Below, in pieces: positions 1-62,426 of a DNA stretch of 64,000 nt. Within the stretch, counting starts at the first letter, position 1. Each line of letters starts with the position of its first letter. A model generated the notes under the pieces. It saw only the letters and a list, made by a program, of their open reading frames with translations. It made no database searches and was not told the origin of the DNA. Both the position numbers and the translations under genes were made by a program. Origin of the DNA: a virus; the IMG/VR virus record IMGVR_UViG_3300043395_002359, positions 1 to 64,000 of that record; one strand, 5' to 3'.

Positions 1-49
1 GCGGGCCGTTCACGATCTCGCGGCCCGCACCACGCATAGGAGCCCTCCA

Positions 50-283
50 ATGTCCATCACCGCCAAGTCCACCAAGTCCGAAATCTGGGACGCCTACCAG
101 GCCCTGCTCAAGCAGTCCCAGGCCGAAGTCGTCACCCCGGTGGCGATCCGCAACACCGCTCAAGCTGTCGCGCATGAGACTCTTGAGCTGGCAAGGGATC
201 TCCAGCGCCTGGGCGCCTGGGGCCGCTACCAGATCACCGAGTTGATCAAGATTTACAACAGGCCGGTGCTGAAAGCCGACTGA
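50..283 (+). CDS. Cassette gene, hypothetical (77 aa), inverted relative to its neighbours; paralog of 4122-4364
   Basis: AGGAG RBS; TGA stop overlaps the repeat arm (TGATCGTGA); alignable by eye to 4122-4364. Confidence 0.85.
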   Translation: MSITAKSTKSEIWDAYQALLKQSQAEVVTPVAIRNTAQAVAHETLELARDLQRLGAWGRYQITELIKIYNRPVLKAD

Positions 284-315
284 TCGTGATCAACTGACCT
301 GCGGGCCGTTCACGA

Positions 316-591
316 TCATTCGTAATCATGCGGCCGGTTGCGCTCCCATTCCATTGCTTCACACCGGGCCGTGTGCCAGGCATCCCTGAGGTCGCTGGCG
401 AGGCTCACCAGATCAGCCCAGCCCAGCGCTTCAACCGCCTCTTCTACCTCCGGTTCGCCGCAGTCGTCCAGCATGTAGTAAACCCAGGTGGCGTCGATCT
501 CTGACAGATCCTCGGGGATGCTGAACGTCCCCAGGTTGTTCAGGTAATCCCAGGCGAGGTCGTTTTCAGTGATGATTGGCGTGGTGGTCAT
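316..591 (-). CDS. Cassette gene, acidic hypothetical protein (MTTTPIITEND...)
   Basis: TAGGAG RBS, sigma70-like promoter upstream, stop overlaps the repeat arm. Confidence 0.85.
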   Translation of the reverse strand: MTTTPIITENDLAWDYLNNLGTFSIPEDLSEIDATWVYYMLDDCGEPEVEEAVEALGWADLVSLASDLRDAWHTARCEAMEWERNRPHDYE

Positions 592-613
592 TGGAAAACT
601 CCTATTCGAATCG

Positions 614-642
614 AGTGTAGCACGAAGCGAGATCGTGATCAA
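614..642 (-). promoter_or_regulatory. Sigma70-like promoter TTGATC-N17-TACACT with extended TG; the -35 lies inside the repeat
   Basis: Minus strand reads TTGATC acgatctcgcttcgtgc TACACT. Confidence 0.6.
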
Positions 643-675
643 CTGACCGGCGGGCCGTTCACGATCTTGCTCTTA

Positions 676-873
676 TCATACAGCGATCGGGGCGTTACTG
701 GCAATAAACCTCTGGGCCTGATTCTGATCGATCCAGTAATGCCGATCAGTCCCGATCCTAAACGCAACCTCCCAGATCAATAGGGTGGCAATGCGGCGAT
801 CGACCTTGAAGTGATCAGCAACCCAGCTAACGGACTCAGTAAAGCTGGAGCAGGGCAGGCGGTGGGTTGACAT
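676..873 (-). CDS. Cassette gene, hypothetical (MSTHRLPC...)
   Basis: TAGGAG RBS; fills the space between two repeats. Confidence 0.8.
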   Translation of the reverse strand: MSTHRLPCSSFTESVSWVADHFKVDRRIATLLIWEVAFRIGTDRHYWIDQNQAQRFIASNAPIAV

Positions 874-930
874 TGGAATTCTCCTAGTGGGTGACTTGAT
901 CGTGAGCAATGACCGGCGGGCCGTTCACGA

Positions 931-1152
931 TCAATTCCAGGTTGAATCAGCGGCTGCCTGGCTTCTGACGTAGGAGGAAATCCCGAAGAATCTGCCGTCA
1001 GCCTTCATTTCCTTGGCTGCCACAATGGCCTGGTCCATCGTGTCAAACCATTCCGTAACGGGTCGCGTGCCGCTGGCGGTGACGAACCGCTCAACGTAGA
1101 TGCTGTAACGCCGGCCGCGAGAAGCGAGATTGCGGAATTTGTAGGTTGTCAT
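931..1152 (-). CDS. Cassette gene, hypothetical (MTTYKFRNL...)
   Basis: ORF between repeats; stop overlaps arm; TTGCTC-N17-TAAGGT upstream. Confidence 0.8.
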   Translation of the reverse strand: MTTYKFRNLASRGRRYSIYVERFVTASGTRPVTEWFDTMDQAIVAAKEMKADGRFFGISSYVRSQAAADSTWN

Positions 1153-1260
1153 GGGAAATGCCCGATTGAGTGAATTTCCGAAATTTCCGGAATTGCCTGG
1201 TGGCCCTCCCACCTTAGCACCGATCCTGATCGTGAGCAATGACCGGCGGGCCGTTCACGC

Positions 1261-1419
1261 TCATGATTCGTAACCTATCACCTCCTCGGCCCGTTCCCGT
1301 TCGTTCAGGGCCTCAATCCAGGCGATGTCTTCCTGCAGGCGCTCGAGCAATTCCTCGAGCAGTTCCAAGCTGGCGGTCTCTCGCTCGAGCCAGCGATCAA
1401 AGGATTCAGCGACAGTCAT
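1261..1419 (-). CDS. Cassette gene, small acidic coiled-coil protein (MTVAESFDRW...)
   Basis: AAAGGGAG RBS; stop overlaps arm; Glu/Leu-rich. Confidence 0.8.
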   Translation of the reverse strand: MTVAESFDRWLERETASLELLEELLERLQEDIAWIEALNERERAEEVIGYES

Positions 1420-1485
1420 TGGGGTCTCCCTTTGGTTCAATGATAGCATGGTGAGCGTGAGCAATGACCGGCGGGCCGTTCGCGA

Positions 1486-1899
1486 TCACGCTGCAATCCT
1501 AGCAGCTTGCTGCAGGATGTAGTTGTCAGCGTCAAGGCGCATGGCCCACTCGTCTGAGCCTTCCCAGGCCCCGTTCGAAGCGTACCACGTAAAATCCTGC
1601 TGGCTGATGCCCTCGCCTGGCACGAAGGCCCGCAGGAGGGCGTTAAGGCGTGATTTCGTGGTGTTGGTGCGGTAGCCGCAATCGCTCAGGCGGATCCGCA
1701 TCATGTCTGGCTCCACCACGCCGATCAGGTTGCCATGCAGGCGGATCTCGATTTCGCGGTAGTAGCCTGGCGTATGGGCGATGCCGTGGTGGACCTGGGT
1801 GACCTCAGTGTTGCCGCACAGCAGCAGCCGGCCGTCCCTGGCAGCGGCGCCCAGGCCGTCGCGGATGGCTTGAATCATGCGGGCTTCGACGACTCTCAT
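1486..1899 (-). CDS. Cassette gene, cyanophage-type conserved hypothetical protein
   Basis: AAAGGGG RBS; motif LHGNLIG...GYRTNTTKSRLNALL resembles a family I recall from cyanophages; stop overlaps arm. Confidence 0.85.
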   Translation of the reverse strand: MRVVEARMIQAIRDGLGAAARDGRLLLCGNTEVTQVHHGIAHTPGYYREIEIRLHGNLIGVVEPDMMRIRLSDCGYRTNTTKSRLNALLRAFVPGEGISQQDFTWYASNGAWEGSDEWAMRLDADNYILQQAARIAA

Positions 1900-1954
1900 G
1901 GGATTTCCCCTTTGGTGGTTTGATCGTGATCAATGACCGGCGGGCCGTTCGCGA

Positions 1955-2149
1955 TCACGCGCAGTATCCCATTGGCTGGCCAGCTAGCGTGTGGCTCTGA
2001 ACCACGGAATGGCGCATCCACATCCTGACAGTGTTGTATTCGCCAGTGAAACGATCGCCGTCCCAGCGGTTGGCTACGGCGCGAGCCTGGGCACACTTGG
2101 CCAGGTTCAGCTTGGCAAACATGGTCAGTTCCGGGAAGTCGTAGTTCAT
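1955..2149 (-). CDS. Cassette gene, hypothetical (64 aa)
   Basis: AGGGA RBS; stop overlaps arm. Confidence 0.75.
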   Translation of the reverse strand: MNYDFPELTMFAKLNLAKCAQARAVANRWDGDRFTGEYNTVRMWMRHSVVQSHTLAGQPMGYCA

Positions 2150-2312
2150 GGGGGGTCCCTGTAGCGGATTCAGTCTAGGGCTTGGAATTGGTGGATGGGC
2201 GTGGATCGTAGCAATTCTTGATCGTGATCAATGACCGGCGGGCCGTTCGCGATCACGTTCTGGGCTTCCTGCATTGCACCAGGAATACTAGGGAACACGC
2301 ACTCCTGGGTCA

Positions 2313-2582
2313 ATGGCTGAAAAGAAACGCAACACGATGGACTATTACAAGTCTCATCCTGAGGCGTACAAGAAGAAGATGGAGTACGAGGCGCAGAGAA
2401 GAAAGACTGACAGGGAGCGCGAGAGGTATAACCAGCGCCGCCGGTTCAAGCGGGCGCATGGGCTTGAAGGCAAGATGGGCAACCGTGATGTCAGCCACAC
2501 GAAGGACGGGAAACTCGTCCTGGAGAACCGTTCGACCAACAGGGCTCGAAACGGAGAGGGCGGTCGTCGCACACTGAAGTGA
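2313..2582 (+). CDS. Small basic HNH-like protein; paralog of 52140-52439
   Basis: SHPEAYKKK...DVSHT...EN.S.NRARNG shared with 52140-52439. Confidence 0.85.
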   Translation: MAEKKRNTMDYYKSHPEAYKKKMEYEAQRRKTDRERERYNQRRRFKRAHGLEGKMGNRDVSHTKDGKLVLENRSTNRARNGEGGRRTLK

Positions 2583-2667
2583 CCGGTGCCTGCGATTGCC
2601 GCCTCAGTGCCGTTCGCACCTGCCACATTGCATTGTGACCGGATGTAAATTGCAGTAAGTGGGCAAT

Positions 2668-2691
2668 AAAAAAGGCCCCCATGTGGGGGCC
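2668..2691 (-). terminator. Intrinsic terminator for 2713-3060
   Basis: GGCCCCC-ACAT-GGGGGCC stem followed by a T run on the minus strand. Confidence 0.8.
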
Positions 2692-2712
2692 GTTCTCAAC
2701 AGTCTCAGACTC

Positions 2713-3060
2713 TCAATCCTCCCAGTCAATCAGCGTCACCAGGGCAACTTTGATCCTGACGGGATACTTGTCATTGAGCAAGGTGGTATCCCTCATCTTC
2801 AGCCACACGTCATTCATCTCATCCCAGATCATCACGTCGCCCCGGCTGTAGCGCCGCTGGGCGTCGTCCTGTACGGCAAGCGGGCAGGCGCCACCGATCT
2901 CGAGGTCTACAGTGGCGTCTGGGCGGATCACCAGCTCCCAGCCGGCATCGGCGGGGGTCAGGCCGAACCGGCCGAGCGTGTAGGCCAAGTCGCACCACTC
3001 GAGTGTGCAGGCGTTGTACCGAGCCTCGGCAGGGGCGGGGCGGGACTGCAGGTAGGTCAT
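2713..3060 (-). CDS. Hypothetical protein in module A (MTYLQSRPAP...)
   Basis: ORF between a TTGACG/TAGAAT promoter-like pair and a terminator. Confidence 0.8.
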   Translation of the reverse strand: MTYLQSRPAPAEARYNACTLEWCDLAYTLGRFGLTPADAGWELVIRPDATVDLEIGGACPLAVQDDAQRRYSRGDVMIWDEMNDVWLKMRDTTLLNDKYPVRIKVALVTLIDWED

Positions 3061-3330
3061 GGGAATGATCCCGTTGGACTCCCCGATTCTAACCACGGAT
3101 CCCGGCGGATCGTCAACCCTCTGGCACTAATTATAAAACAAGGTCTGGCTAAATATAGCTAACTAGGCCGAGAAAGCACCTGCGATCCGACCGAAGGGCC
3201 GTTCGCAAGTTCCGAACGGCTTGATTGATTGCCAGCGGCGGGCGCCCGGTGCCTGCGATAGTCGCCTCAGTGCCGTTCGCAGTTGCCAGATTGCACTGTG
3301 ACTGAGTGTAAAGTTGTGGCAGGTAAGCAT

Positions 3331-3354
3331 AAAAAAAAGGCCCCTTTCGGGGCC
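3331..3354 (-). terminator. Intrinsic terminator for 3382-3624
   Basis: GGCCCC-GAAA-GGGGCC followed by T8 on the minus strand. Confidence 0.85.
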
Positions 3355-3381
3355 CCGGTGTAAGCAGTCTCACCAGTCTCG

Positions 3382-3624
3382 TCACTCCTCCTGTGCGTGG
3401 GCGTTGGTCATTAGGTAGTCGTGCAGGCTGAACAGCCAGCGCGTCGCGTCGCTGTAGAACTCGAACGCCTCGTCTGTCATGCCGTCGTCGCTGCTGATCT
3501 GGCTGCGGGCCAGGTCTGTGAGCTGAGAGACGGCGTACAGCATGCCGAGCCGGAAGGCGGTGCCGTCGCCGGCACACTCCTGCTGGCGCTCTGCCTCGAT
3601 GGCGATGGACTTCATTGCGGCCAT
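3382..3624 (-). CDS. Hypothetical protein in module B (MAAMKSIAIE...)
   Basis: Same flanking frame as module A; TTGACG-N18-CATACT upstream. Confidence 0.8.
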   Translation of the reverse strand: MAAMKSIAIEAERQQECAGDGTAFRLGMLYAVSQLTDLARSQISSDDGMTDEAFEFYSDATRWLFSLHDYLMTNAHAQEE

Positions 3625-3779
3625 GGGATTAACCCGATTGGACTCCCACAGTATGGGCACGGCCGTGCCTGCCCGTCAACCCTCAGACGCTAATTGATAA
3701 TTAGCATCCGGCTAAATATACCTAACAACCCCGAGATGGCACTTGCGATTCGACCGAAGGGCCGTTCGCAAGTTCCGCT

Positions 3780-4091
3780 TCATTCGCGCTGGTAGCCCAG
3801 TTGGTCAAGCCGGCGCTCAAGGCGCTGGCAGTCCTCTTCGCTGCTGCACTGGGCCTCGAGCTGGTACCACTCCATTCCAGGGAAGGGGACGAGGTTCGCG
3901 GATACAACGGCCACCGGCCCGGATGCCCCAGGATGGTGGATCAGGACTGACTGGGCCTTGCCTTGCAGGCCGTAGAAGATGCAGGCCAAGCCGATGCCGA
4001 GGCCGATGGTGCCGCCGAGGAGGTTGTCTTGCACTGGAAGGGTCCTTTGGTGGTGGTGGTGCGGCTGTACCGCATGGAATGATCTTAGCAT
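3780..4091 (-). CDS. Cassette gene, putative membrane protein (true start may be an internal GTG)
   Basis: Hydrophobic LLGGTIGLGIGLACIFYGL; fills the inter-repeat interval. Confidence 0.7.
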   Translation of the reverse strand: MLRSFHAVQPHHHHQRTLPVQDNLLGGTIGLGIGLACIFYGLQGKAQSVLIHHPGASGPVAVVSANLVPFPGMEWYQLEAQCSSEEDCQRLERRLDQLGYQRE

Positions 4092-4121
4092 GGAACCTGC
4101 GATTCGACCGACGGGCCGTTC

Positions 4122-4364
4122 TCAGGTGCCTTGGCTTTTGAAGATTGGCCTCCTGTATGTATCAATCACCAGTGTACAGCATGACCGCAGCCAGCGGCCA
4201 GCCTGCTGACAATCCTTCACAAAGAGCGGCAGTTCGCGTGAGACGGTCGAGACTGTACGCTGCATCAGGGTCGGTACGTCGCTCCAGGTGACAGGGGGCC
4301 GAGCCTCGGCGGCCTCCAGGCGGGCGATCAGTTCGGCCTTGGTCAAGCGGGAGTGTGCAGTCAT
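4122..4364 (-). CDS. Cassette gene, paralog of 50-283
   Basis: TKAEL...RTV..V.RE...DCQQAGRW.R...IDTYRRPIFK matches 50-283; C-terminal GT-stop is encoded by the repeat arm. Confidence 0.85.
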   Translation of the reverse strand: MTAHSRLTKAELIARLEAAEARPPVTWSDVPTLMQRTVSTVSRELPLFVKDCQQAGRWLRSCCTLVIDTYRRPIFKSQGT

Positions 4365-4437
4365 GGAAGTGTCCGATGGTGGTTTGTGTAACGAACTTGG
4401 CTGAGAAGGGTACCTGCGACTGACCGACGGGCCGTTC

Positions 4438-4611
4438 TCAGGTGCCAGGCTGCACGGCCCTGGCGACCCGGCACCCCATGACATCGCAGTACACGGTGGC
4501 GGTACCGGGCTTGGCCGCCTTCCGCGGCCCGCCGAACGGAACGAGGATCACGGCCGTTGCCATCGCGCCGAGCAGCAGGCCGGCAGCAACAGAGGAGAGA
4601 GGAGCCTTCAT
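4438..4611 (-). CDS. Cassette gene, small membrane or secreted protein (MKAPLSSVAAGLLLG...)
   Basis: N-terminal hydrophobic stretch; C-terminal GT-stop is encoded by the repeat arm. Confidence 0.75.
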   Translation of the reverse strand: MKAPLSSVAAGLLLGAMATAVILVPFGGPRKAAKPGTATVYCDVMGCRVARAVQPGT

Positions 4612-4650
4612 GGTTGGATGGATGAGAATGGGATTGTCCCTTTCGGTGTC

Positions 4651-4679
4651 AGTGTAGGGCCGATGGTCATGCATGTCAA
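4651..4679 (-). promoter_or_regulatory. Near-consensus sigma70 promoter TTGACA-N17-TACACT pointing into the array
   Basis: Minus strand reads TTGACA tgcatgaccatcggccc TACACT. Confidence 0.8.
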
Positions 4680-4713
4680 GGTACGTGCGACTGACCGACG
4701 GGCCGTTCTCAGG

Positions 4714-4854
4714 TGCCTGCTGCCTGCCTGCCCTGCCTGCCTGCCCTGCCTGCTGCCTGCCCTGCCTCGATGCATCACGCACAAGCAGCGAGGCGATGGC
4801 ATTGCGTTGGCTCTGCCCCTGCCTGCTGCCTTGCCTGCTGCCTGCTGCCTGCTG
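4714..4854. repeat. Low-complexity TGCC/TGC tandem repeats, two tracts
   Basis: tgcctgctgcctgcctgccctgcc... at 4714-4768 and about 4814-4854. Confidence 0.9.
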
Positions 4855-5008
4855 TCATGTGGTGCCTCTCTTGATGCCGGTGCTCGCCGGGGGGTTTGCC
4901 GCCTGGGCGCCAGGAGGCCTGGGTACCCCCACCCCCGATTCCTGGAAAGCCAATCCGAGACAACCCCCTCAGGAAATTTTTCAAAAAAACTGGTACCCTA
5001 GAACAAAA

Positions 5009-5211: not shown

Positions 5212-5262
5212 GTATATTAATGGATGTCTACAGAATGGAAGTATATTAATGGATGTCTACAG
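5212..5262. repeat. 22-bp direct repeat x2, 29-bp period
   Basis: GTATATTAATGGATGTCTACAG at 5212 and 5241. Confidence 0.9.
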
Positions 5263-5277
5263 TAGATTTGGGGACAG

Positions 5278-5796
5278 ATGGCAAAGCGCAGCCCATTAGA
5301 CATTTTAGTAAATTCCAGTATATTAATACAGGAACCGAATGCAACGGCGCTATTAAATGGCAGGTATATTGAGGATGGCGAGGGTCCAAGATATTTAGTA
5401 AAGGCATATTTACAAAGAAGTGAAGGGGATGGAACGGATGACGGGGAGCTTCCTAGTTTTGGCAATAGGGCATCAAGTGGTGGCGGATCTACCAGTACAT
5501 GGTTATTCAGGGGATATGGGATAGAATATACGGAAGTACCGAGTACATTCAACCATGGAGATAACGAGGATGGGTATACGTATCAATCAATATTGACTTC
5601 CAGTGATGCGCCAGCGATTAAGATACCGATATATCCAAATTTAAAAGTCAGTCTTAGGCATGGCACATTACCGATTATACATAAATCGGAGGTAGTAATG
5701 ATTGGCGGTAAATATCAAGGTCTAGGACCTGACAAGACGATATATGTAGAACTGAGGGGGATACCAATTGTCCTCAGGGGATCAATGGTACGTTAA
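5278..5796 (+). CDS. Hypothetical virion protein (possibly head-tail joining)
   Basis: 172-aa ORF at the head of the tail module; position only. Confidence 0.6.
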   Translation: MAKRSPLDILVNSSILIQEPNATALLNGRYIEDGEGPRYLVKAYLQRSEGDGTDDGELPSFGNRASSGGGSTSTWLFRGYGIEYTEVPSTFNHGDNEDGYTYQSILTSSDAPAIKIPIYPNLKVSLRHGTLPIIHKSEVVMIGGKYQGLGPDKTIYVELRGIPIVLRGSMVR

Positions 5797-5825
5797 TCAC
5801 CCTCAGGGGATCAATGGTACGTTAA
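5772..5825. repeat. 25-bp direct repeat x2, 29-bp period
   Basis: CCTCAGGGGATCAATGGTACGTTAA at 5772 and 5801. Confidence 0.9.
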
Positions 5826-9472: not shown

Positions 9473-12400
9473 ATGGCCGGTGATCTCAACCTGTTAGTTG
9501 ATCTTAGCACTCAACAGGCGGCCCAACAGGTTGAGAAATTATTTAATGAGTTCAAAAGCGGCTCGAAGGAAGCCGGCGACCAGCTCAACAGGCTGTTAAA
9601 GGGATCTGTTGAAAAGAAAGTCAGAATACGACTAGAGAAAGATACTGCTGGCATCAAGCAAGTAAAAGCCGAGCTTGTCGAAGTGCAATCGGCTGTAGAT
9701 GGTATTACGAAGGCATATAACAGAGCAAATAAAACACAACCTGGCAGCCTGACAAACCTTAGGCAGCAGGTTAATGAAGCAAAACAAGCAAGGGATGCTA
9801 TTGCTTTATTTTCCAGGGAAGTTGATCTATTAAATAGAAAGCAAATATTAAGCGGAAATTTAAGTCCTGCCTTTGCTGCTGCTCAGCAAAATGTAACGGA
9901 TTTAACTGGTAAATTAAAAAACCTGGAGCTGGCAACATCCAGTACGTTTGATCGGTTCAAGGCATCTCTTGGTGTTGACCAATTCCTTGCATTTGGTCGT
10001 GGCGTCCAGGATCTTGTTACTATCTTCCAGAGCCTAGGGATTGCCATCAGTGCATTAACGGCTCCCATCAATCAAGCCGCGACTGCATTAGCACGCCTGC
10101 AGGGTCTTGAGTTAGCATTCAAGGCAATTGGAGCTGGGTCGGGTGGTGCTTCTATTGCCCTGGCTGAGTCCTCCAGGATCGCCCTTGGCCTTGGCGTCAG
10201 CCTGGATACCGTTAGAAATGGTTTCCAGAAGCTGTCGCCTGTTATCCTGAATTCCGGCGGTCAGCTAAGTGATGTTAGCGCCATCCTTGAGGCACTTTCC
10301 AGCCGATTTGCTGCGTTTGGATTAAATGCAGACGAATCACGCAGAGTTTTGAATGGTGTTGTGCAGGCCTTTGCTAAAGGCAAGCTGCAAGCTGAAGAAT
10401 TAACGCAGCAGATATCTGAAGCTGACCCTGCATTCAAGACAGACTTAGCAAGGGCAATTTTTATTGCTAAGGATTCACTGAAGGAATTTGGTATTGAATC
10501 CGATGGTACGGTAGCTAATCTCGAGGGCTTGGTTAAGCAAGGCAAGCTAACTTCCGAAGTTTTAATCAAAGTATTGCCTGGCCTCAGTAAGTCCGGGGTG
10601 CTATTTGGCAAGCTTGGTACCACCGCCCTGGATGCTGTCGCTTCACTAGGCAAGGCTGGCACGACAATAACTCAAGTAAGAACGCAGATTGATAACCTTA
10701 ATCAGTTATCTTTTGAAAGACTTGCAAAAACTTTTGAACCTGTTATCAAATCGTTCCTTGATATACAGGCTGCATTTACTGATTTTATTACAAAAGTATC
10801 AAAGATTGAGGTGATACAATCCCTGGCTGCAGCATTAGCCAGGGTAACGCAGGCCGTTTCGAACTTAACTCAATTTATACTGAATGGCATCGAAGGTTTA
10901 ATCAGGTTTGCTGATGCTGTTGGTAAAGTATTTAACGCTATCGGTAGGATATTAGGCCCAATTGCTGATTTGGTTTCTGGATTAGCCAATGCACCAGGCC
11001 TGATTGAGGCAATCGGTCTTTTACTTCTCGCAAAACTTGTAAAACCGGCGAAAGAGGCCGTATCTTCTGTCCTTAGCCTGACAAAAGTATTAAACGATTT
11101 TGGGCAAACGGGTAGTATAAAGATTAGTCTGACTGATGATATAACAAAAGAATTCAAGGATGCAGCAAATACCATAAAGCAAACATTTAACCCTGACGAC
11201 ATATCAAGGGGAATTGATGATGGAACCAAAAAGCTTAATACAATTGCCTCTGAGCGTTTACAGGATCTAAGGAAAAAGTTCAGGGCAGCAGCTAATGATC
11301 TGGAGACACCGATCTCAATTCCGGAGCCTGCTTCGCCTGCAAAGCTTGGCATCTCTGCCAAGGTATTACGCGAAGTAAAGGATTCGAAGACATCGCTATC
11401 TGAACTGTTCCAGCTAAGAGGCGAACTAGAGAAAGATCTGTCAAATATATTTGATGACAACAAGAGAAGGCAGTTATTCTCGGAAAATGCCTTAAATCAG
11501 ATAGATGCGGCTAATGTAAAACTGAATGAGCTTGGTGGCCGCATTAAAGATTTGGAAAGCGGTCCTGAAGTTGACATAAAGTCGCTTCAAGCTGCCAGGA
11601 AAGAAGCAGCAACGCTACTTGGAAAGATAGCTGAACTAGAAGATGCTGTTGCTACTGGGTTCACCCCGGAAGTCGATACAAGGCAGGTCCGCGCATTAGA
11701 GAAAGGCCTTACCAGCGTAGAAAAGCAGATACTGAATCTGCAGAAATATAGAAATATCAATTTAAAAGCGTTGGTCGATGACACTGATGTTTTAAGAACC
11801 ATCCGCGACACCGACGGCCTCAGGGCTCTGTACGATAAAAAGTTAGAGCTAGAGGCAATTGTTAACACGCAAGTAGACGCAGAGGGAGCATTGCGCGAAC
11901 TCGAGGATGTAAAGAGAACGATTCGCGCTGTTGGGAAGGTCGATATTCCGATTACCGCTAATGCGTCTGGCGCAATAGATGACATTGCCTTAAGCAAAAA
12001 AGAAATTGCAAAAATAACCGATAATTTAATATTAAGCGAGGATCAATATTACCAGTCTCTAACACGGCAGCAAGCTGCCTTAAGACAGAACGTAGAATTT
12101 GAGCGTCAAAGACTAGATGCCGCAAGACAAGGCGGCGATATCCAAGGGATAGATCCTTCGGTAGCGAGAACTGCTTACGAGCAGCAAGGAAAAGCGCTTG
12201 ACTCGGTTAATGCAAAAATTGATCAATACGTTTCCACACTCAGGGAATCGTATGCCGCCGGCAGTGGTGCAGCAGAAATTGCTGATCAATATACTCAAAG
12301 GGTACTCACTCAAGACCAAGCGCTGTCTGCGCTTTCCAGCCAGCAAGAACGGTTCACTACGATACAAACAGCTACAAGCAACGCTGTTAATGCCACCAAG

Positions 12401-15400
12401 GACAAAGTATTAGTACTTGAATCGGCTTTAGCGAAGGCGAAACAGACTGCTGCAAGTACAAGTTTTGGCAGTAAAGCCGCCGAAGAAGCTCGCGCTACTA
12501 TTGCTAGCCTTACGAGTCAACTGTCTACAGCGAGACAGCAGCTTGGCCAGCTTGGCATCGTTTCTCAATCAGTAGCAGATGAATTAAGCGCCCTTGGTTC
12601 AGTGCAAAAGGGTATTTCTGATGCTGAATTCCGATTTGGAGAAAAACTAAAGGCAGGCTTTGCTCCTGTCGGCGGATTACTGAATGGATTCAGCCAATCT
12701 ATCCAGTCAACCATAACCAGTGCTCAGTCTCAGTTTACCAAGCTAGGTGATGGCATCAAGAAGACATTTAGCGGAGGGATATCTGGATCTGTTAACAATC
12801 TAAAGGGACTTATTGGTGATATCGGAAAATCAGCCGCAAATGCTGGCAGCAGCATAAAGAGTGGAATTGGTAATGCGTTAAACAATCTCGGCACTCAGCT
12901 CGCCAATGTTGGTAAGATTGATGTTGGCAAAACGCTCAAGAATAGTTTTGATGCGGCGAAAGCTAGCGTGTCCACTTTTGCTAAAGATGCTCAAAGGAAT
13001 ATTGGCACATTCTCTGCTGATACTATCAAAAATCTTGGCAAGATTGGAACGAATATAACGGGCGCTTTTAGTAACATCAAGGCAGGCGTTAAGGGCATAA
13101 TAACATCGATTGGCCCTGAGTTAGCGATTTTCGCCACGATTGCCACTTTAACTGCTTCCTACAACGAGGCAACCAAAAAGACTAAGGCGATCAGCGAGGA
13201 TACCGCTAGTTCTGTCAAGATCCTGGCAGATCAGTCGACAGGCCTTAAGGAAAGCCTAGCCGGATTAAACCAGCAGGTTGCTGCCAGTAACGTCACAAAA
13301 CTTGGGCAAGAATACAATGGATTGCAAAAAATATTACTTACGCTGGGCAATGCGTTATTGAGCGTACAAAAGGCATTTGAAGGTCTGTTTAACTTCGTTG
13401 ACAGTGCTGCACCAAAAGTTGGCGCTGTTTCTAACGAATTCGACAGGCTTGCTAGGCAGTTGCTGGTAATTGGTGGCTTTGCTGCTGCCGGTGCGGCCAT
13501 AGGTTCTATTGTGCCGGCAATAGGCACGCTTGCAGGCGCCCTCGTAGGGACTGGTGTTGGAGCGTTTGTCGCCATTACCGGCGCAACCGAAGACTGGAAG
13601 GTAGCACTTGGCGAATCCAAGAAAGAGCTTGATGCCTTAGTCCAATCGGCAGCTACCAGAGTGGCTGCGCTAAAAGATCTAACGAAGCAACTGAATGAAG
13701 CAAAGGCCCAGGCTGCTAAGATCGACTCAACCGCCACGGGGCCCGCCCAAGGGCAAGCCAAGGCGTTATTCGATACGCAGGGTATTGCGGCCTACGCAGA
13801 AGCAAATAAGCAACTGGAAACAATAAGAGCAAACATACTTGGAATAACACAAGCCAGGGATGCGGCCAACGCGGTTGTATTAAAAGAGAAAACCTTAATT
13901 GAGCAAATATCAGCCATAGAGAAGAAAAGGATCGGTGTAAGTAACTACAGTACAGAAGGGAAGAAGCTAAATGCGGAGTATACCAGGCTAAATGAAGAAC
14001 TCAAGAAGAGCCAGGCGCAATTCGGCGGCAGCAAAGAAGCTGTCGCTCAGTACAATACTGCCCTCGCTCAATTGAAATTACAAGAGGCAGCAGCAGCGGC
14101 GGAATCTAAAAAGATAGCGGAAACACTCGGTCTCACCGAAGCGGAACTCAAAAAGATTGCGAAGACCAGCTTCACTGGCGTCGAGGAAGAAATTAAGAAC
14201 CTTGAGAAGGCCGTAAAAGCATTAAACTTTGATAAGTCCGCTGAGATCATAGCTACCTCACAGAAGATCGGTACATTGAAAGCCGATCTTGAAGCACTAG
14301 ACCAGATATCAAAGAAAGCCGAATTAGCGGCATATTTCCAGAGAACAACTGAACTCATCGCAAACGGAAGACTGTCGTCCAGTTTGCAAAACGTAAACAA
14401 TCTGGTTGCTAATTTAAACAATCAGATTGCATTACTTGACTTTACAAAAGCAGAAGATTTAACAAGACTTGACGAGCTAGCGACCAAAATGGGTCGACTT
14501 AGCGCAATCATAGAGGTAGTTGAAGCCAGGGTTGAAAACAATAAGCTTGCTGGTTACATTGAGCAGATCAAGCTTGGCTTAGCTAATGACGAAATTCCGA
14601 GAAGCCTGCAAACTATTGACAACTTAGTAAAGGCGCTCGAGCAGCGCACGATGCTCCTGGATATTAACAGTCCCGAGCTGCCGGAAGTTATTGCTGATAT
14701 GCTGCAGGCAAAGCAAGAGCTTGATTACCTGAACGGGAAAAAAGCCTCCATAACCCTAGAGTTAATACAGGAAGGGCTGGCGAATGGCAGTCTTGTTAAT
14801 ACGCTAAGTCTGATAGATCAGCAGATTGAAGCATTAAACCAGAAGAAACTATCGTTACCTGTTAACAGCGAAAGCTATGTTCAGGTCATAGATCAAATTA
14901 AAGAGATAACAAGACAGCGCCAGCTATCCGAGCAGACGACTGATGATTTACTGGAAAGGAAGTTTAATATACAAAAAGAAAGAATCGATGCCTTAGCCTC
15001 TCTGGAAAAGGCCAAGAGTGACGCCAGGATCGCCCTGATCGACCGCGAGATCGATAAGGTTAAGACCTATTACGATGAGCAAATAAAGGCCTTAGAGAAG
15101 CAGAAAGGCCCCGCTGAGACGCAGCTTGAAGCAGTCAAGCTTGCCGAGCTGCAGCAGAAGGCAAGATCAGGAGGAAGGGAGGGGCTTGAGGCGCAAGCTG
15201 AGCTGGAAAGACTGGATCGCGAAAAGAAAATTGCACAATTAAAGGAGGAATCAGAGAAGAAGGTAGCTGAACTTGAAAAGCAGAAAAAAGCAGAGCAAAA
15301 TGCTATCCTCGACAAGGAGATCGCCGTTGCTGAGAAGAGACTAGAGCTCGAAGAAAAGATTACACAACTCAGGCTGAAATCGCTTGGCGCCGAGGAGGCT

Positions 15401-16738
15401 GACATTGATGCCGTCCTTGCTCAAAGGGCTGGCCAATCTGGCAATAAAGCTGGAACTGCGTACGGCCAAGCATTTGCTCAGGCAAGTGAAATGGTCATCA
15501 GGGAGGCCAAGCCCAATGAGCAGGATCCAGCAAGCAAAGTTCAATTTAACTATGACAACAGTCAGGTCTTAGCGGCAAAGGACCAAGTAATCGCGAAAGA
15601 AGGCGAATATCAAGCTAAATTAACTGAGACAAATGCCCTAAGGGATCAATTCAATTCTGCACAACCGAACACTGATCAGTCTATAATAGTTGATCAGCTT
15701 TTGGCAAAAGAAAGGGAGCTGGCCACTCTTCAAGCCGAGCAGTATACAGCGGAAGAGCAATACAATCAGGTCCTTAGGGACACGGCAACGATAACAGGTG
15801 AAATCAATGTATCGAATGAAAACTTGACGGGTACTATCCAGGAAGTAAGTGCAGCAACCCAGGAGACATCGGCTGCGGCGAACGAAACAGCCGCTAGCTT
15901 CTACGATGTAAATGCTGCTGTTGCTGGTACAGCGGAAGGCTTGGGTCAAACTAGTCAAGCTGCCGGTGACCTAACGAATTCCGTTGGCGACACTGCCGAC
16001 TCTACTCAAAAGATAGGCGAAGGCGTAGAGAAAGCAAAAGGTAACTTTGACGATCTAAATAATGCAATCGTTGACACCGATGGCAATATTCAAGGTACTA
16101 ACGCTTCGTTCGAGGCAGCGGCAGCTAAAGTTAACGATGGCCTTGTACCAGCGCTCGAGAAAGTGCCTGCTACTTTAGATACCATACAAAGTAAAATGAA
16201 CGAAATATTCGACAGAGAGTATACCGTTAATGTAACGCTTAATGTTCAAAAACAAGGGGTCTGGACGGGTGGCCCTGTCACCAGGGGAACCGCTTATACG
16301 GTTAACGAACTTGGCCAAGAAGGTTTCATGAACCGCTTTGGCAAGATAAGCCCAATTCAAAAGCCAAGATGGGGCACCTGGAGACCTCCCAGTGATGGCT
16401 TCGTTATTCCTGCCGATATTTATAGCCAGCTCAGAACAGACGGTGTCAAGCCGCCAAAGTCCAGCGTGAGCCATAGCTCGCCGTCGGTATCTGGCGGGCG
16501 CCGTGACAACGGCACAAAAGAGCTAGCAAGAGCGTTTGCCGCCATCGGCCAGGGTCTTGCCAAGAATAACGACAATGGCCTTGATGAGCTGAGCAAAGTT
16601 CAGGCATATCAAGCCAAGGAGATCGGAAAACTAAGCCGCGCAGTGCAGGAGTTGTCTGAAAAAGACTGGAATGTCAAGGTTGGCGTCAGGAATTCTGGCA
16701 ACATGAATAGCCTCAGATTATCCACTTACAGAATATAA
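9473..16738 (+). CDS. Tail tape measure protein (2421 aa)
   Basis: FAKGKLQAEELTQQISE tape-measure motif; Ala/Leu-rich helical; C-terminal GGPV..G.AYTVNELGQEGF. Confidence 0.92.
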   Translation: MAGDLNLLVDLSTQQAAQQVEKLFNEFKSGSKEAGDQLNRLLKGSVEKKVRIRLEKDTAGIKQVKAELVEVQSAVDGITKAYNRANKTQPGSLTNLRQQVNEAKQARDAIALFSREVDLLNRKQILSGNLSPAFAAAQQNVTDLTGKLKNLELATSSTFDRFKASLGVDQFLAFGRGVQDLVTIFQSLGIAISALTAPINQAATALARLQGLELAFKAIGAGSGGASIALAESSRIALGLGVSLDTVRNGFQKLSPVILNSGGQLSDVSAILEALSSRFAAFGLNADESRRVLNGVVQAFAKGKLQAEELTQQISEADPAFKTDLARAIFIAKDSLKEFGIESDGTVANLEGLVKQGKLTSEVLIKVLPGLSKSGVLFGKLGTTALDAVASLGKAGTTITQVRTQIDNLNQLSFERLAKTFEPVIKSFLDIQAAFTDFITKVSKIEVIQSLAAALARVTQAVSNLTQFILNGIEGLIRFADAVGKVFNAIGRILGPIADLVSGLANAPGLIEAIGLLLLAKLVKPAKEAVSSVLSLTKVLNDFGQTGSIKISLTDDITKEFKDAANTIKQTFNPDDISRGIDDGTKKLNTIASERLQDLRKKFRAAANDLETPISIPEPASPAKLGISAKVLREVKDSKTSLSELFQLRGELEKDLSNIFDDNKRRQLFSENALNQIDAANVKLNELGGRIKDLESGPEVDIKSLQAARKEAATLLGKIAELEDAVATGFTPEVDTRQVRALEKGLTSVEKQILNLQKYRNINLKALVDDTDVLRTIRDTDGLRALYDKKLELEAIVNTQVDAEGALRELEDVKRTIRAVGKVDIPITANASGAIDDIALSKKEIAKITDNLILSEDQYYQSLTRQQAALRQNVEFERQRLDAARQGGDIQGIDPSVARTAYEQQGKALDSVNAKIDQYVSTLRESYAAGSGAAEIADQYTQRVLTQDQALSALSSQQERFTTIQTATSNAVNATKDKVLVLESALAKAKQTAASTSFGSKAAEEARATIASLTSQLSTARQQLGQLGIVSQSVADELSALGSVQKGISDAEFRFGEKLKAGFAPVGGLLNGFSQSIQSTITSAQSQFTKLGDGIKKTFSGGISGSVNNLKGLIGDIGKSAANAGSSIKSGIGNALNNLGTQLANVGKIDVGKTLKNSFDAAKASVSTFAKDAQRNIGTFSADTIKNLGKIGTNITGAFSNIKAGVKGIITSIGPELAIFATIATLTASYNEATKKTKAISEDTASSVKILADQSTGLKESLAGLNQQVAASNVTKLGQEYNGLQKILLTLGNALLSVQKAFEGLFNFVDSAAPKVGAVSNEFDRLARQLLVIGGFAAAGAAIGSIVPAIGTLAGALVGTGVGAFVAITGATEDWKVALGESKKELDALVQSAATRVAALKDLTKQLNEAKAQAAKIDSTATGPAQGQAKALFDTQGIAAYAEANKQLETIRANILGITQARDAANAVVLKEKTLIEQISAIEKKRIGVSNYSTEGKKLNAEYTRLNEELKKSQAQFGGSKEAVAQYNTALAQLKLQEAAAAAESKKIAETLGLTEAELKKIAKTSFTGVEEEIKNLEKAVKALNFDKSAEIIATSQKIGTLKADLEALDQISKKAELAAYFQRTTELIANGRLSSSLQNVNNLVANLNNQIALLDFTKAEDLTRLDELATKMGRLSAIIEVVEARVENNKLAGYIEQIKLGLANDEIPRSLQTIDNLVKALEQRTMLLDINSPELPEVIADMLQAKQELDYLNGKKASITLELIQEGLANGSLVNTLSLIDQQIEALNQKKLSLPVNSESYVQVIDQIKEITRQRQLSEQTTDDLLERKFNIQKERIDALASLEKAKSDARIALIDREIDKVKTYYDEQIKALEKQKGPAETQLEAVKLAELQQKARSGGREGLEAQAELERLDREKKIAQLKEESEKKVAELEKQKKAEQNAILDKEIAVAEKRLELEEKITQLRLKSLGAEEADIDAVLAQRAGQSGNKAGTAYGQAFAQASEMVIREAKPNEQDPASKVQFNYDNSQVLAAKDQVIAKEGEYQAKLTETNALRDQFNSAQPNTDQSIIVDQLLAKERELATLQAEQYTAEEQYNQVLRDTATITGEINVSNENLTGTIQEVSAATQETSAAANETAASFYDVNAAVAGTAEGLGQTSQAAGDLTNSVGDTADSTQKIGEGVEKAKGNFDDLNNAIVDTDGNIQGTNASFEAAAAKVNDGLVPALEKVPATLDTIQSKMNEIFDREYTVNVTLNVQKQGVWTGGPVTRGTAYTVNELGQEGFMNRFGKISPIQKPRWGTWRPPSDGFVIPADIYSQLRTDGVKPPKSSVSHSSPSVSGGRRDNGTKELARAFAAIGQGLAKNNDNGLDELSKVQAYQAKEIGKLSRAVQELSEKDWNVKVGVRNSGNMNSLRLSTYRI

Positions 16739-19629: not shown

Positions 19630-22600
19630 GTGTCAAATCCCCAAGTAAACCTTTCCAATGCTTATCCGGACGCGCAATCTGGTGACGCAGTACTTGACGA
19701 GGCTACAGGAAATTACTGGGTATATGATGGTTCATCATGGAATGATGTTGGGCCGGTTCTTGGCACTACGATAAACTTTGAAAGTGGACGTACATTATGG
19801 GATGAAATACAGCTCTTTAGCTCGGTTGTTCGTACGGGTCTCGGTAGGGCTACCAGATCGTTTCCTTATAGCTTAGAGCCAAATATAGTTGTTACGCCTT
19901 TAAGCGTCTACACTTCGGTCAATGTTTACGAAGCTGGATCAGCTTCTCCGGGTGTAAGCACCTTTGCTGTAACTGCATATGTGCCGGAAATACTGCAAGG
20001 TATTGCCGTCTTTGCAGTAAACGGCTATTTAGCAATTGCTGGCGCGTCTCCCACTATTGATGCAAGCCTGGGGGCAGCAGTCGATCCGGGTGTCGCGACT
20101 GTACAGTTGATTGGCGCCGCCGACGTAGACATACAAACAACAGCTAAACAGATATTCCCATCAGTCGCAGCCATAGGCGTCTTTCGGAATACACCTACCA
20201 TAGTAGCTGTTCTAGATGCGTTCTTTAGTAACACTACCCTGATTATTAAATCTATTCAGGATTCTAGCGCGACCGGACCAACCAGTAGATTTTTTCCGGA
20301 TGTGAGCCCTGCCGCCAGAACGGTTCGCGTCACAGAATATACTGATAAATACTACGGTTTGCTTGATTCGGTCCAAGCTACCCTGTCTGGCAATTCTCCA
20401 TATGCCTCTAGCCTTGGTTCATGGACTGATGGATTTAAGGGGGTATTCTATAGTACTGCAGCCGCTAAATTCGGCTCAAAAAGTATTTTGTTTTCTAGTA
20501 AGACTTCGTGGCTCCAGGCATCTTACGATGCGACCCTGGCCTTTGGCACAGGCGCGTTTACTATGGAAGCATGGGTGAGATTCAATGAGCTAACCTTGAC
20601 ACAACAATGGTTGTTCGATAATCTTGCCATCAATAATGCTAACGTCGAATTACACAATTCAACTCTTGGCAGTGGCACCCCTTCTGCTACCGTTACATGG
20701 GCTCATGGTGGGGCGATAACAACAAACGCATGGCTGCATGTAGCTGTATCGAGAGATTCTTCTGGCAATATAAGACTATTTGTAAATGGAGCGCAGGTAG
20801 ACACAACCAAGACAATAGCTAGTACTAATTTTACGGTTCCTGTATATAAAATTGGCGCAAAGTACTATAGTAGTGATACGGCTCATGCTAACACATTGAG
20901 GGCATTTGTCCAGGAAGTAAGAATAACTAAAGCTGCAAGGTATACTAGCAATTTTTCGGTACCAACAGAGTCTTTCGTTTCGTATGGCTACACGCTGCCA
21001 ACGGATGAATCACAAACAATACCAAAATCCAGTATTGTTTTGCAAGTCCATGGCATGCCAGATGCCATCACTGGCAATCCCAAGGATTACAGCACGAACA
21101 ACTCAACAATAACACCGGTCACGGTTATCCCGTCAGAAGCGATAACTGGTGATACGAACTGGTACCTTACAACGTTTTTACTACAACCGGATGGACCAAA
21201 TGGAAGTACATTGGCTACGAATAAAACAGGCAAAAGTGGTATTACCAATAACGTCCCTACATACGTTTATCAGTCAACTAGTGTAAGGAAATACGCGGAC
21301 GCCTCATGGTATTTCAGTGGTGGCACGGCAAGTACTCAGCACTTTTTAAATGCCGGCGACCCGGAAGGGATGAGGTTTACAACTACAGACATAGGGACGA
21401 TAGAAATGTGGTTCTATCTTACCAGAACAAGTGGATATAATATTCTAATATATAAAGGCACTTACGGATACAACGAAAACTATTACGTTGCCGTATGCAA
21501 TAATGCAACGCAAATACAACTAGGATACGCAGATGGTGGCTCAAATTACATAACAATTGACTACACAACAACCATAAATACATGGCATCACTTAGCTATA
21601 ACGACAGCCCCAACAAGTTATTACAACTTTGCTTCTAAAGGCATTAGAGTCTACATGGACGGCGCCTATATCGGCGGGAATCCTAGTGTTACATTTACCA
21701 ATAGCAGTAGTGGCTATGTAACGATCGGTGGAGCAGTGTGGAACAATGAAGCTCTTGATTTAGGCTTTCAGGGATATATAGCTGAGCTTAGAGTTACCAA
21801 AGGAATAGCTAGATACAAAGGTAGTACGTATACTGTACCTACTCAAAAATTTGGAAGTGCAGAGCCGTCTCCCGCCTTTGATCCGTATTTCAATAATGTA
21901 AAACTATTGATGAAGATGAATGGTACGAATAATAGTACCAATTTCATTGATAGTAGCCCACTTGGACTCTCAATTGGGGTATTCCAGAACTATATAAGCA
22001 CTGCCATGTCTAGGTATGGCGGTTCTTCAGCTAGATGTATCGGCAGTAATGGTTATATATATACCAATAATAATACGCTTGACCACAATCTTCCTGGCGA
22101 CTTTACGATTGAATGCTGGGTATATGTTATCAGCTATTTCCAATTCCCGTCTGTTGGCAGCTTTGGATTGGTTAGTAGATGGGGATACAACAGTATAAGT
22201 TATCAGAACGAAGCATGGTCAGTTGGCATAAACGACCAACAAGGCATTAGATTCAGGTATGGTAATGACGGCACTAGTGTGGGTCAGATTGATGTAGCCG
22301 CTAACAGTATTGGCGTAAATAATTGGTATCACATCGCAGTTAGCCGTGCCTCTGGTGTTGTAAGGATATTCCTTGACGGAGTGCAACAAGGGACAAGTCA
22401 AACTATTACCAGTAACTTGTCAACGGTGGGCGACAATGGCTACATTCAGACATCGATTGGTATAGATTGGGCTCAAGTATATAGCGGTGGTTTCGCTGCG
22501 ACAAACACCCTAAATGGATACATTGACGATGTTCGCGTTACCAAAGGTGTTTGTAGATATGACGCCAATTTCACTCCGTCAGAAACCCCATTCTACAGCC

Positions 22601-58711: not shown

Positions 58712-59422
58712 ATGGCAGACGTACCCAATCTCGCTGGTATTGCAACCCAGGACTTAGTTGAGACCATTGGTAGTGGCTCCTACAAGGCCAGTTACATAAA
58801 CTGGGCCAGGACCATGAACCTGCTGCATGAGCACGCTCCTGGCTGGGCTCCTGAAATGCTGCCTACCAGTGATGGAGGCTGGGTCCACCCGGCCCCTGGT
58901 TCAGGCGGCTTTCTGATGATTCGCTTTGTCCACACCGATGGATCCGTGCGGCCCGCTTACCCGCAAAGCATCATGGATCATCGAAACAATGCCATACCCT
59001 TAGATAAAATCACGGCCAGAGACGTAACCGACACACATAGACGCGGTTCCTGTATGGCCGCTGCCATGGAATTTGGCTTGGGGCATGAGCTGTGGGCAAA
59101 GATGCCACTGGAAAGTGGCTACCATGACGAGCCAGGAACCGCTCCAAGCAGTCCTACTACAGCAGGCTTTAAGGCCCAGAAGTCAGCGACCCAGAAGGAC
59201 TTCCTCGAGGCTTGTCTTGATAAAGGTCTTACCAGTTATGCAGCGGATAATCTCCTGAGTCTGATCAATGGCAATTACGAAGGAGGCCTCAGAACACTGG
59301 CAAGTAAAACGGTAGAATGGGTTGCCGAGCAAAACGCAAAGGCAGAGCCCCCTACTGAGGAAGCACAGAATAGCAAAGCACCAAAAAAGACAACAAGCAA
59401 GCCGAAACCGGAGGATTACTGA
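58712..59422 (+). CDS. Sak-like single-strand annealing protein (DUF1071-like)
   Basis: SYINWA...IMDHRNNAI...ARDVTDTHRR...AAAMEFGLGHELW. Confidence 0.75.
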   Translation: MADVPNLAGIATQDLVETIGSGSYKASYINWARTMNLLHEHAPGWAPEMLPTSDGGWVHPAPGSGGFLMIRFVHTDGSVRPAYPQSIMDHRNNAIPLDKITARDVTDTHRRGSCMAAAMEFGLGHELWAKMPLESGYHDEPGTAPSSPTTAGFKAQKSATQKDFLEACLDKGLTSYAADNLLSLINGNYEGGLRTLASKTVEWVAEQNAKAEPPTEEAQNSKAPKKTTSKPKPEDY

Positions 59423-59594
59423 TTGACCCAAGATTCCCTCGTCTTCTTGATGAGGGAATCGAATTCAAGGGATTCTCTATTGATTGGGCCGCAGAACAGC
59501 TTGCAAAAGCTTTTGATGGCCTCATCGTAAGAGATTATAAAGGGCCTTAGACGGCCCTTTTCCTTTGCTAGCATCGGTTGGACGCACACGGCAC

Positions 59595-62404: not shown

Positions 62405-62426
62405 TGTGGATCATATTGGTCGATGC

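Follow-up and report, generated by a model that had tools for sequence, protein, structure and literature searches.

A stem-loop repeat of fixed polarity between single-gene cassettes in the probable early region of a cyanobacterial siphovirus

The window analysed is the first 64 kb (positions 1 to 64,000) of IMG/VR record IMGVR_UViG_3300043395_002359, a linear viral genome of 93,040 bp with a CheckV completeness estimate of 100%. At its left end (1-4717) the window carries an array of small genes separated by copies of a short inverted repeat, here called the joint. The joint is a unit of about 31-38 nt in which two inverted arms of 8-10 nt flank an asymmetric core (linker-GACC-NNN-GGGCCG). 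Comparison with relatives supports the view that the cassettes between these joints have been shuffled at the repeats in the course of evolution. In what follows the genome under study is G000, its relatives are G001 and G002, and L-numbers denote contig loci. The proteins of G000 include those of a siphovirus-type virion (a tape measure of 2421 aa, collagen-like tail fibres, endolysin, terminase and portal), replication and metabolism functions (DnaB helicase, primase, ribonucleotide reductase and ligase) and two sigma factors. The host is most likely an estuarine or freshwater Synechococcus, because the large terminase is close (69-71% identity) to those of the Synechococcus phages S-CRES1-3 and S-CBS2. 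The GC content is 58-63% at 1-4980 and about 39-56%, mostly 40-50%, elsewhere in G000. Wherever the flanks are known, the array lies directly upstream of the tail-gene module and has the same polarity relative to it.

The sequence-only reading of this DNA had described about 15 repeat copies in 1-4717 with all cores in one direction, one short open reading frame with its own ribosome-binding site per interval, and an array that runs off the left edge; each of these points was borne out. The joint copies number about 15 (12 full, 1 cut by the contig edge and 2 degenerate). The strict pattern GATCGTGA-N15-25-TCACGATC gives 3 matches (282, 631, 898) against 0.00 expected. In the whole 93,040-bp record the core GACCGNCGGGCCGTTC, with at most one mismatch, has 12 matches on the + strand, all inside 296-4708, whereas the - strand and the backwards control both give 0. 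Positions 1-17 (+) are a cut joint copy consisting of core and right arm, so that the left end of the contig falls within a repeat. The gaps between repeats measure 192-923 bp, and in each there is a single gene of 52-137 aa that has a ribosome site. Eleven of the 13 cassette genes are on the - strand, where the order is gene stop, joint, then the ribosome site and ATG of the next gene. The array genes were called with a codon log-odds model, which missed the gene at 4122-4364.

Read from the left, the cut joint is followed by a gene of cassette family F1 (50-283, +; 77 aa, predicted two-helix), whose TGA stop shares its GA with the left arm of the next joint. This joint is a full copy of type A (GATCGTGA...TCACGATC; 282-317, +), and its right arm contains the stop of the F18 gene (316-591, -; 91 aa). 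The type A joint at 631-666 (+) continues on the - strand into TGCTACACT, an extended -10 box. It is succeeded by the F19 gene (676-873, -; 65 aa), a type A joint (898-932, +), the F7 gene (931-1152, -; 73 aa), a type A joint with the right arm TCACGCTC (1228-1262, +) and the F13 gene (1261-1419, -; 52 aa), which has its G001 homologue on the opposite strand. The type A joints at 1453-1491, 1922-1956 and 2220-2254 (all +) are of the TG subtype, the first with a right arm shifted to GATCACGC; they enclose the F26 gene (1486-1899, -; 137 aa), which matches Pfam PF23790 Kyano_Gp96, and the F9 gene (1955-2149, -; 64 aa). A gene of 89 aa (2313-2582, +; phrog_6437, function unknown) precedes a conserved 67-nt flank, repeat D7 (2583-2649, +), in which a degenerate joint derivative occupies about 2589-2625.

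The next part of the array contains two genes in similar surroundings. A canonical terminator with hairpin and T-run (D11; 2668-2695, -) lies beside a gene of 115 aa without known family (2713-3060, -). The promoter before this gene (TTGACG-N17-TAGAAT, about 3110-3080, -) adjoins a conserved 104-nt 5' flank, D5 (3111-3214, +), made up of a type B joint (3178-3210) and an AT-rich stretch on the - strand. There follow a second copy of the D7 flank (3246-3312, +) with a degenerate joint at about 3252-3288, a canonical terminator (3333-3357, -), a gene of 80 aa (3382-3624, -), a promoter (3679-3650, -) and, adjoining it, the second D5 copy (3674-3777, +) with its type B joint (3741-3773). The genes 2713-3060 and 3382-3624 are unrelated; the flanks that they share (repeats D5, D7 and D11) are 81-87% identical and comprise a joint and promoter on one side and a terminator and degenerate joint on the other. 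The right part of the array begins with a hydrophobic gene of 84 aa (3780-4034, -) and a type C joint (ACCTGCGA...TCTCAGGT; 4095-4127, +), the lone stem mismatch of which makes a TGA stop on the - strand. A second F1 paralogue (4122-4364, -; 80 aa), opposite in orientation to 50-283, is separated by another type C joint (4412-4443, +) from a gene of 57 aa with a hydrophobic N-terminus (4438-4612, -). The last joint, also type C (4683-4714, +), is followed on the - strand by a promoter TTGACA-17-TACACT (4679-4651).

One core is thus combined with three arm types, A (GATCGTGA/TCACGATC), B (ACTTGCGA/TCGCAAGT) and C (ACCTGCGA/TCTCAGGT), and compensatory changes at 4 stem positions separate type A from B and C. 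In an alignment of 99 distinct joint copies from 30 loci, 15 columns are invariant and 81% of the stem cells are paired, with a covariation score higher than in any of 500 shuffles or any slid register. Pairing is essentially absent at stem position 3; the idea that this arm position pairs across the cassette received a weakly positive result (44% against 39% by chance, p=0.065), and within the repeat the figures are 33% against 37%. In RNA folding, 13 of 14 single-strand folds reach -14 to -20 kcal/mol, with an outer stem of 9-11 bp and a short inner stem-loop; the weakest (-8.7 kcal/mol) is that of the last joint on the - strand. The z-scores of the folds are mostly -2 to -4 and both strands are about equally stable. 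The distance between the arms ranges from 15 to 22 nt, and because of this 7-nt variation a loop appears to fit better than a dimeric operator on double-stranded DNA. Each arm, read on its own coding strand, is TGA-NCG-TGA, and a gene arriving from either side therefore terminates within the arm. No Rfam family matches the joint. The G001 array is bordered on its left by another hairpin, GTGAATGAAC-N8-GTTCATTCAC (L135 of G001, 10240-10290, equal to L125 7113-7160). It looks like a joint with its core replaced, since it sits within the usual outer arm bases GAGCGTGA...TCACGATC.

The same joint is found in a group of related phages. G001 (85,756 bp, direct terminal repeats) is complete and is syntenic with G000 at 65-75% nucleotide identity, and G002 is a partial relative genome of 24.6 kb that also carries the joint. 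About 33 metagenome contigs hold 2-11 joint copies each. Overall, about 200 copies were collected, and within every array their direction is uniform. A scan of viral contigs with the core only returned mostly single chance matches in GC-rich viruses, and a pattern including the arms was used instead. Among 50,697 deposited phage genomes, S-CRES1 and S-CRES2 are the sole carriers; each has two joints, which flank gp61 and gp62 at the same genomic position. In record OQ587939.1 the two joints are located at about 32283-32318 and 32845-32881. The array and 20 kb of the window gave no blastn match in the 50,697 phage records, and a search for related loci with one protein gave no match either. In 185,579 prokaryote genomes only single chance matches in GC-rich bacteria were found; the joint is therefore neither a host REP (repetitive extragenic palindromic) element nor a prophage array there. 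The flanking protein of one array contig (L232, 8129-10177; >683 aa) has weak similarity to the primase/polymerase of cyanophage S-2L. This protein is without homologue in G000 or G001, for which reason the joint family may occur in more than one phage backbone.

Cassette order and content were compared between relatives, and they differ in almost every one of the 36 loci, in which clustering yielded 39 cassette families and 33 singletons; the identical order expected of static regulatory elements was thus not found. Common families have 4-9 different neighbours per side, and 8 arrays carry two copies (tandem duplicates) of one family. When related contigs are compared two by two, roughly two thirds of the internal homology ends are no more than 6 nt from a repeat edge, and the breakpoints are in this way tied to the repeats. 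L150 and L208 diverge exactly at the end of a joint, L195 and L229 converge exactly at the start of one, L162 and L220 differ by a translocation, and L222 and L212 by a tandem duplication. Evolutionary shuffling at the repeats is supported by both observations, the variation of order and content between relatives and the break of homology at repeat edges.

Nine families were found on both strands, and the cores never flip. In the window this is seen in the two opposed F1 paralogues (50-283 on + and 4122-4364 on -). Flips of genes appear to be rare, because the + and - members of family F2 fall into two clades, parted only once in the tree (100/100 support); the tree of F1 lacks resolution. Two right-arm bases also divide the joints into subtypes, which run in the order CA, then TA/CG, then TG when the array is read from its distal end in the direction of the tail module, with 152 concordant against 3 discordant ordered pairs, and the order holds in all but one of the arrays with variation. 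The subtype tracks the position in the array and not the cassette family, the flanks of F1 and F2 included. This order fits homologous recombination in register, since it is preserved when like repeats recombine, and excision with re-insertion at one end would scramble it. Some adjacent joints lie only 4-118 nt apart without a gene between them (L216, oriented, 1749-1818; G001 13471-13661; L162 1234-1403). Simple crossing-over within a pair of joints should yield a single joint and not two.

On one strand or the other, 71 of 171 called genes end in a TGA whose GA is also part of an arm, and in the type C joints the lone stem mismatch is the very base that gives rise to this stop. The median 5' spacer is 57 nt long. 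The sigma-70 extended -10 box TGNTANNNT occurs in 58 of 141 spacers (41%), compared with 6.0 +/- 2.2 in shuffles and 7 for the reverse complement, most boxes being 20-28 nt ahead of the start codon. Full -35/-10 promoters were found at 4679-4651, at 3679-3650 and before gene 2713-3060. The roughly tenfold enrichment of extended -10 boxes gives the cassettes the appearance of early genes transcribed by host RNA polymerase. Of the earlier proposal that the array holds early host-takeover or anti-defence genes, the early part is favoured by this enrichment, and anti-defence is only hinted at by family F6 and the label of gp62 (see below). The base beside the 8-bp stem tracks gene direction, being A..C at 33 of 37 ++ junctions and G/T..T at 21 of 32 -- junctions (Fisher p ~1e-7 to 5e-10, relatedness not corrected for). 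As this base follows gene direction, it points to selection on the arms at the level of mRNA or translation. A scan with a terminator consensus returned just two canonical terminators (2674-2691 and 3337-3356). A standard intrinsic terminator was ruled out as the function of the joint because T-runs are rare after the hairpin and separate canonical terminators are used elsewhere in the array.

Taken together, and by a modest balance of probability, the joint is a PeSL-like (promoter-early stem-loop) punctuation between cassettes and at the same time a recombination joint, in the early region of an S-CBS2/S-CRES-like cyanosiphovirus. In mRNA the hairpin would provide stop-codon punctuation and a 3' stem-loop acting as stabiliser, attenuator or insulator, and the early transcripts made by host RNA polymerase would be monocistronic. 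In DNA the approximately 35 bp of shared joint sequence would serve as portable homology between sister or co-infecting genomes. Crossovers at joints could be carried out by host recombination functions or by two candidate phage proteins, a Sak-type single-strand annealing protein (58712-59422, +; PF06378, 27.2 bits with a cut-off of 22.3) and, as its possible partner, a PD-(D/E)XK exonuclease (62406-63266, +; DUF3799, 100 bits, phrog 'exonuclease VIII'). Crossovers between like subtypes would delete, duplicate, replace or import single-gene cassettes and leave the array in register, and flips of a gene between two joints would be rare events. General homologous recombination by the Sak/exonuclease pair would be sufficient for this. 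Several observations weigh against the explanation as PeSL-like joint. The match to Sak is a modest one (27 bits). Plain homology accounts neither for a core GACC...GGGCCG that stays invariant between genomes of just 65-75% identity nor for the lack of any inverted core among about 200 copies when genes of at least 9 families are found on both strands. The double changes in the stem come mainly from one lineage (five type B/C copies), and lineage may be a confounder in the association of arm base with gene strand. Runs of at least 5 T follow the hairpin in only 9 of 116 tails (mean 2.5 T in the first 8 nt). Finally, joints are as common between divergent genes (21 of 25 junctions), where no transcript comes to an end, as between convergent ones (26 of 28).

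The sequence-only reading had proposed a dedicated system for capturing and shuffling genes, and this was not borne out. Six-frame hidden Markov model (HMM) searches of G000, the complete relative G001 and G002 gave no match to Phage_integrase, Resolvase or Y1_Tnp; for PF00589 there was none at E<=0.1, and the control search was positive in 14 of 14 genomes. The recombinase or integrase that was to be looked for was thus not found in these three genomes, the subtype order is strict, and Sak and exonuclease suffice. Structure-specific recombination, in which some phage or host enzyme would read the folded joint through its invariant core and insert, excise or flip genes, is accordingly rated as rather improbable. 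It would account for the invariance of the core and its polarity regardless of gene direction, for arms kept as structure by compensatory changes, for joints at all junction types including divergent ones, and for one family on both strands even within the window. The stop codons inside the site are a further resemblance, as stop codons commonly lie inside attC sites, and conserved function-unknown proteins border the array in G001, L208 and L154. However, no tyrosine or serine recombinase and no Y1 HUH enzyme was detected by the six-frame HMM searches in two genomes rated complete, excision and one-end re-insertion would scramble a subtype order that is kept in 152 pairs against 3, and orientation is stable in deep clades (the 100/100 split of F2). 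The joint also lacks GTTRRRY and is much shorter than attC, and 41% of the cassettes have their own promoter. A more specific proposal is a previously undescribed, hairpin-specific mechanism on single-stranded DNA that reads the fixed-polarity core GACC-NNN-GGGCCG, genes being placed either way between cores. It has a small chance of being right, given that core and polarity are invariant and the base next to the stem flips with the gene. If true, it would be a phage-borne, integrase-free counterpart of the integron, and the conserved function-unknown proteins bordering the array would be the candidate enzymes.

The joint could instead be a purely regulatory RNA element (an RNase III/E site, a 3' stabiliser or a regulator-binding site) with shuffling as an incidental by-product. 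The hairpins stable on both strands, the stop codon within the stem and the arm base that follows the direction of transcription agree with this, as would an early-to-late switch by the two phage sigma factors, which could require a shut-off of early mRNA. Yet the core keeps its direction although the genes of G000 are almost all on the - strand and those of L171 all on the + strand; with core orientation independent of transcription, a single sequence-specific RNA ligand could not recognise one and the same loop in the two arrays. Where neighbouring genes diverge, 21 of 25 junctions have a joint that no RNA need include, and a match in Rfam is lacking, so that this explanation is considered unlikely. 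Operators on double-stranded DNA for a dimeric phage repressor, silencing the early array in the manner of the stoperators of cluster A mycobacteriophages, are highly improbable. The inverted arms CGTGA...TCACG do look like half-sites, in several promoters the -35 position overlaps with one of the arms, and the many copies are confined to one transcription module. The arm spacing nevertheless varies by 7 bp, three arm sequences share one core in a single genome, many joints have no adjacent promoter, and the orientation is independent of transcription. Stoperator-like operators were rejected on this last ground, the core being oriented independently of gene direction. Restriction and ligation, suggested by GATC in both arms and a phage ligase, was dropped because many arrays read GACC or GAGC in place of GATC.

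The earlier statement that the array fits integron arrays, CRISPR arrays and canonical PeSLs none exactly holds after this comparison. PeSLs were described in the T4-type phages RB49/phi1, T4/PST and KVP40/nt-1 (Arbiol et al. 2010, PMC2839356; Comeau et al. 2014, PMC4122927). They consist of a host sigma-70-type promoter and a stem-loop and lie in a hyperplastic early region, where they separate small genes without known function (PMC2839356). Their indel and replacement breakpoints lie in the elements, and homologous recombination was proposed (PMC2839356, PMC4122927). Terminator activity and mini-circles have been demonstrated for PeSLs (PMC2839356). The joint resembles PeSLs in its sigma-70-like promoter (about 41% of cassettes), its stable stem-loop, the upstream stop codon at the edge of the element, its clustering among small function-unknown genes of a hyperplastic region, and breakpoints that fall in the elements. 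It differs in that its stem-loop is one sequence family (15 invariant positions in 99 copies) separable from the promoter, in the fixed polarity of the loop with genes on either strand, in the tandem TGA stops of both arms and in the positional order of its subtypes. It is also found in a cyanobacterial siphovirus, in an array about 15 GC points above the rest of the genome.

With integrons the array shares single-gene cassettes, imperfect inverted repeats of constant orientation, a structure that is better conserved than the arm sequence, and stops in the site. In contrast to integrons it has no IntI, attI or Pc, its joints measure 31-38 bp compared with 57-141 bp for attC, and their right ends read TCRCGNTC(A) with no GTTRRRY. 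Many of its cassettes bring a promoter of their own, a given gene family is found facing either way relative to the site, and the subtype follows array position and not the cassette (152 vs 3 pairs). An integron was rejected, as G000, G001 and G002 gave no PF00589 match, there is no attC of the R''-L''/L'-R' GTTRRRY type, and the subtypes do not travel with the cassettes. A CRISPR array was rejected on the grounds that the intervals are whole genes of 52-137 aa and that no Cas-like protein is among the proteins scanned. REP/BIME (bacterial interspersed mosaic element) sequences are likewise imperfect palindromes of 20-40 nt, intergenic and often right after stops, and REP can stabilise mRNA. 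The joint differs from REP/RAYT (REP-associated tyrosine transposase) systems in lacking Y1_Tnp, in being confined to one phage module and one orientation, and in being absent beyond chance from the 185,579 prokaryote genomes. REP/RAYT was rejected, as G000, G001 and G002 gave no match to a Y1 transposase and the prokaryote genomes scanned included no chromosome rich in copies.

Nearly all cassettes are without known function in Pfam and PHROGs, as are most genes that border the arrays. Apart from F26 (1486-1899), which matches Kyano_Gp96 (PF23790), family F11 matches DUF7178. Family F6, which lies outside the window, is homologous to gp62 of S-CRES1 (E=3e-8). SAM hydrolase is the label given to gp62 by its depositors; the protein has no sequence relative with a solved structure. 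The AlphaFold model of F1 is a plain two-helix hairpin (pLDDT 82).

Other features of G000 were recorded in the surroundings of the array and beyond. Short repeats of the CTGCC/CTGCCC type (families D6 and D8) occupy 4717-4860 between the last joint and the conserved junction of the tail module. The motif of this junction, GGGTACCCCCACCCCCGATTC ... CCCCCTCAGGAAATTTTT, lies after the last joint and before the first tail-module genes and is common to G000, G002 and the cultured S-CRES1 (window 4895-5000; L032 2650-2740; L293 2385-2470); it may be a regulatory region of the structural operon. Exact tandem duplications of 22 nt and 25 nt at 5212-5262 and 5772-5825, each with a pair spacing of 29 nt, immediately precede the start codons at 5278 and 5826. 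The 25-nt duplication repeats the 3' end of gene 5278-5796, stop codon included, and is not present in G002. Very large virion proteins are encoded at 9473-16738 and 19630-26907, namely the 2421-aa tape measure and a protein of 2425 aa with four Laminin_G_3 (concanavalin-like lectin) domains. The sigma-factor genes are located at 59565-60419 of the window and at 66600-67229 of G000, the second one after the terminase genes. It has this position in S-CBS2 and S-CRES1-3 too, and its annotation there is rpoS/SigF. At the right end of G000, which is GC-rich (91191-93040; L248 7191-9040), at least 5 tandem paralogues of phrog_32006 (function unknown) run off the contig, and 91510-91546 and 92048-92095 both match a single G001 site (83660-83711).

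The grammar of the array is unusually clean, with one conserved joint, one gene per interval, stops in both arms and ordered subtypes. How phages gain and exchange small early genes for host take-over or anti-defence has so far been largely inferred from mosaic genomes. Dozens of contigs from uncultured cyanophages of estuaries and fresh water carry the joint, and its sequence would be a marker for harvesting the accessory genes of this phage group from metagenomes. If the joint is PeSL-like, the PeSL principle would be extended from T4-type myoviruses to cyanosiphoviruses, and, as the cultured S-CRES1 and S-CRES2 carry a version with two joints, the model is testable at the bench.

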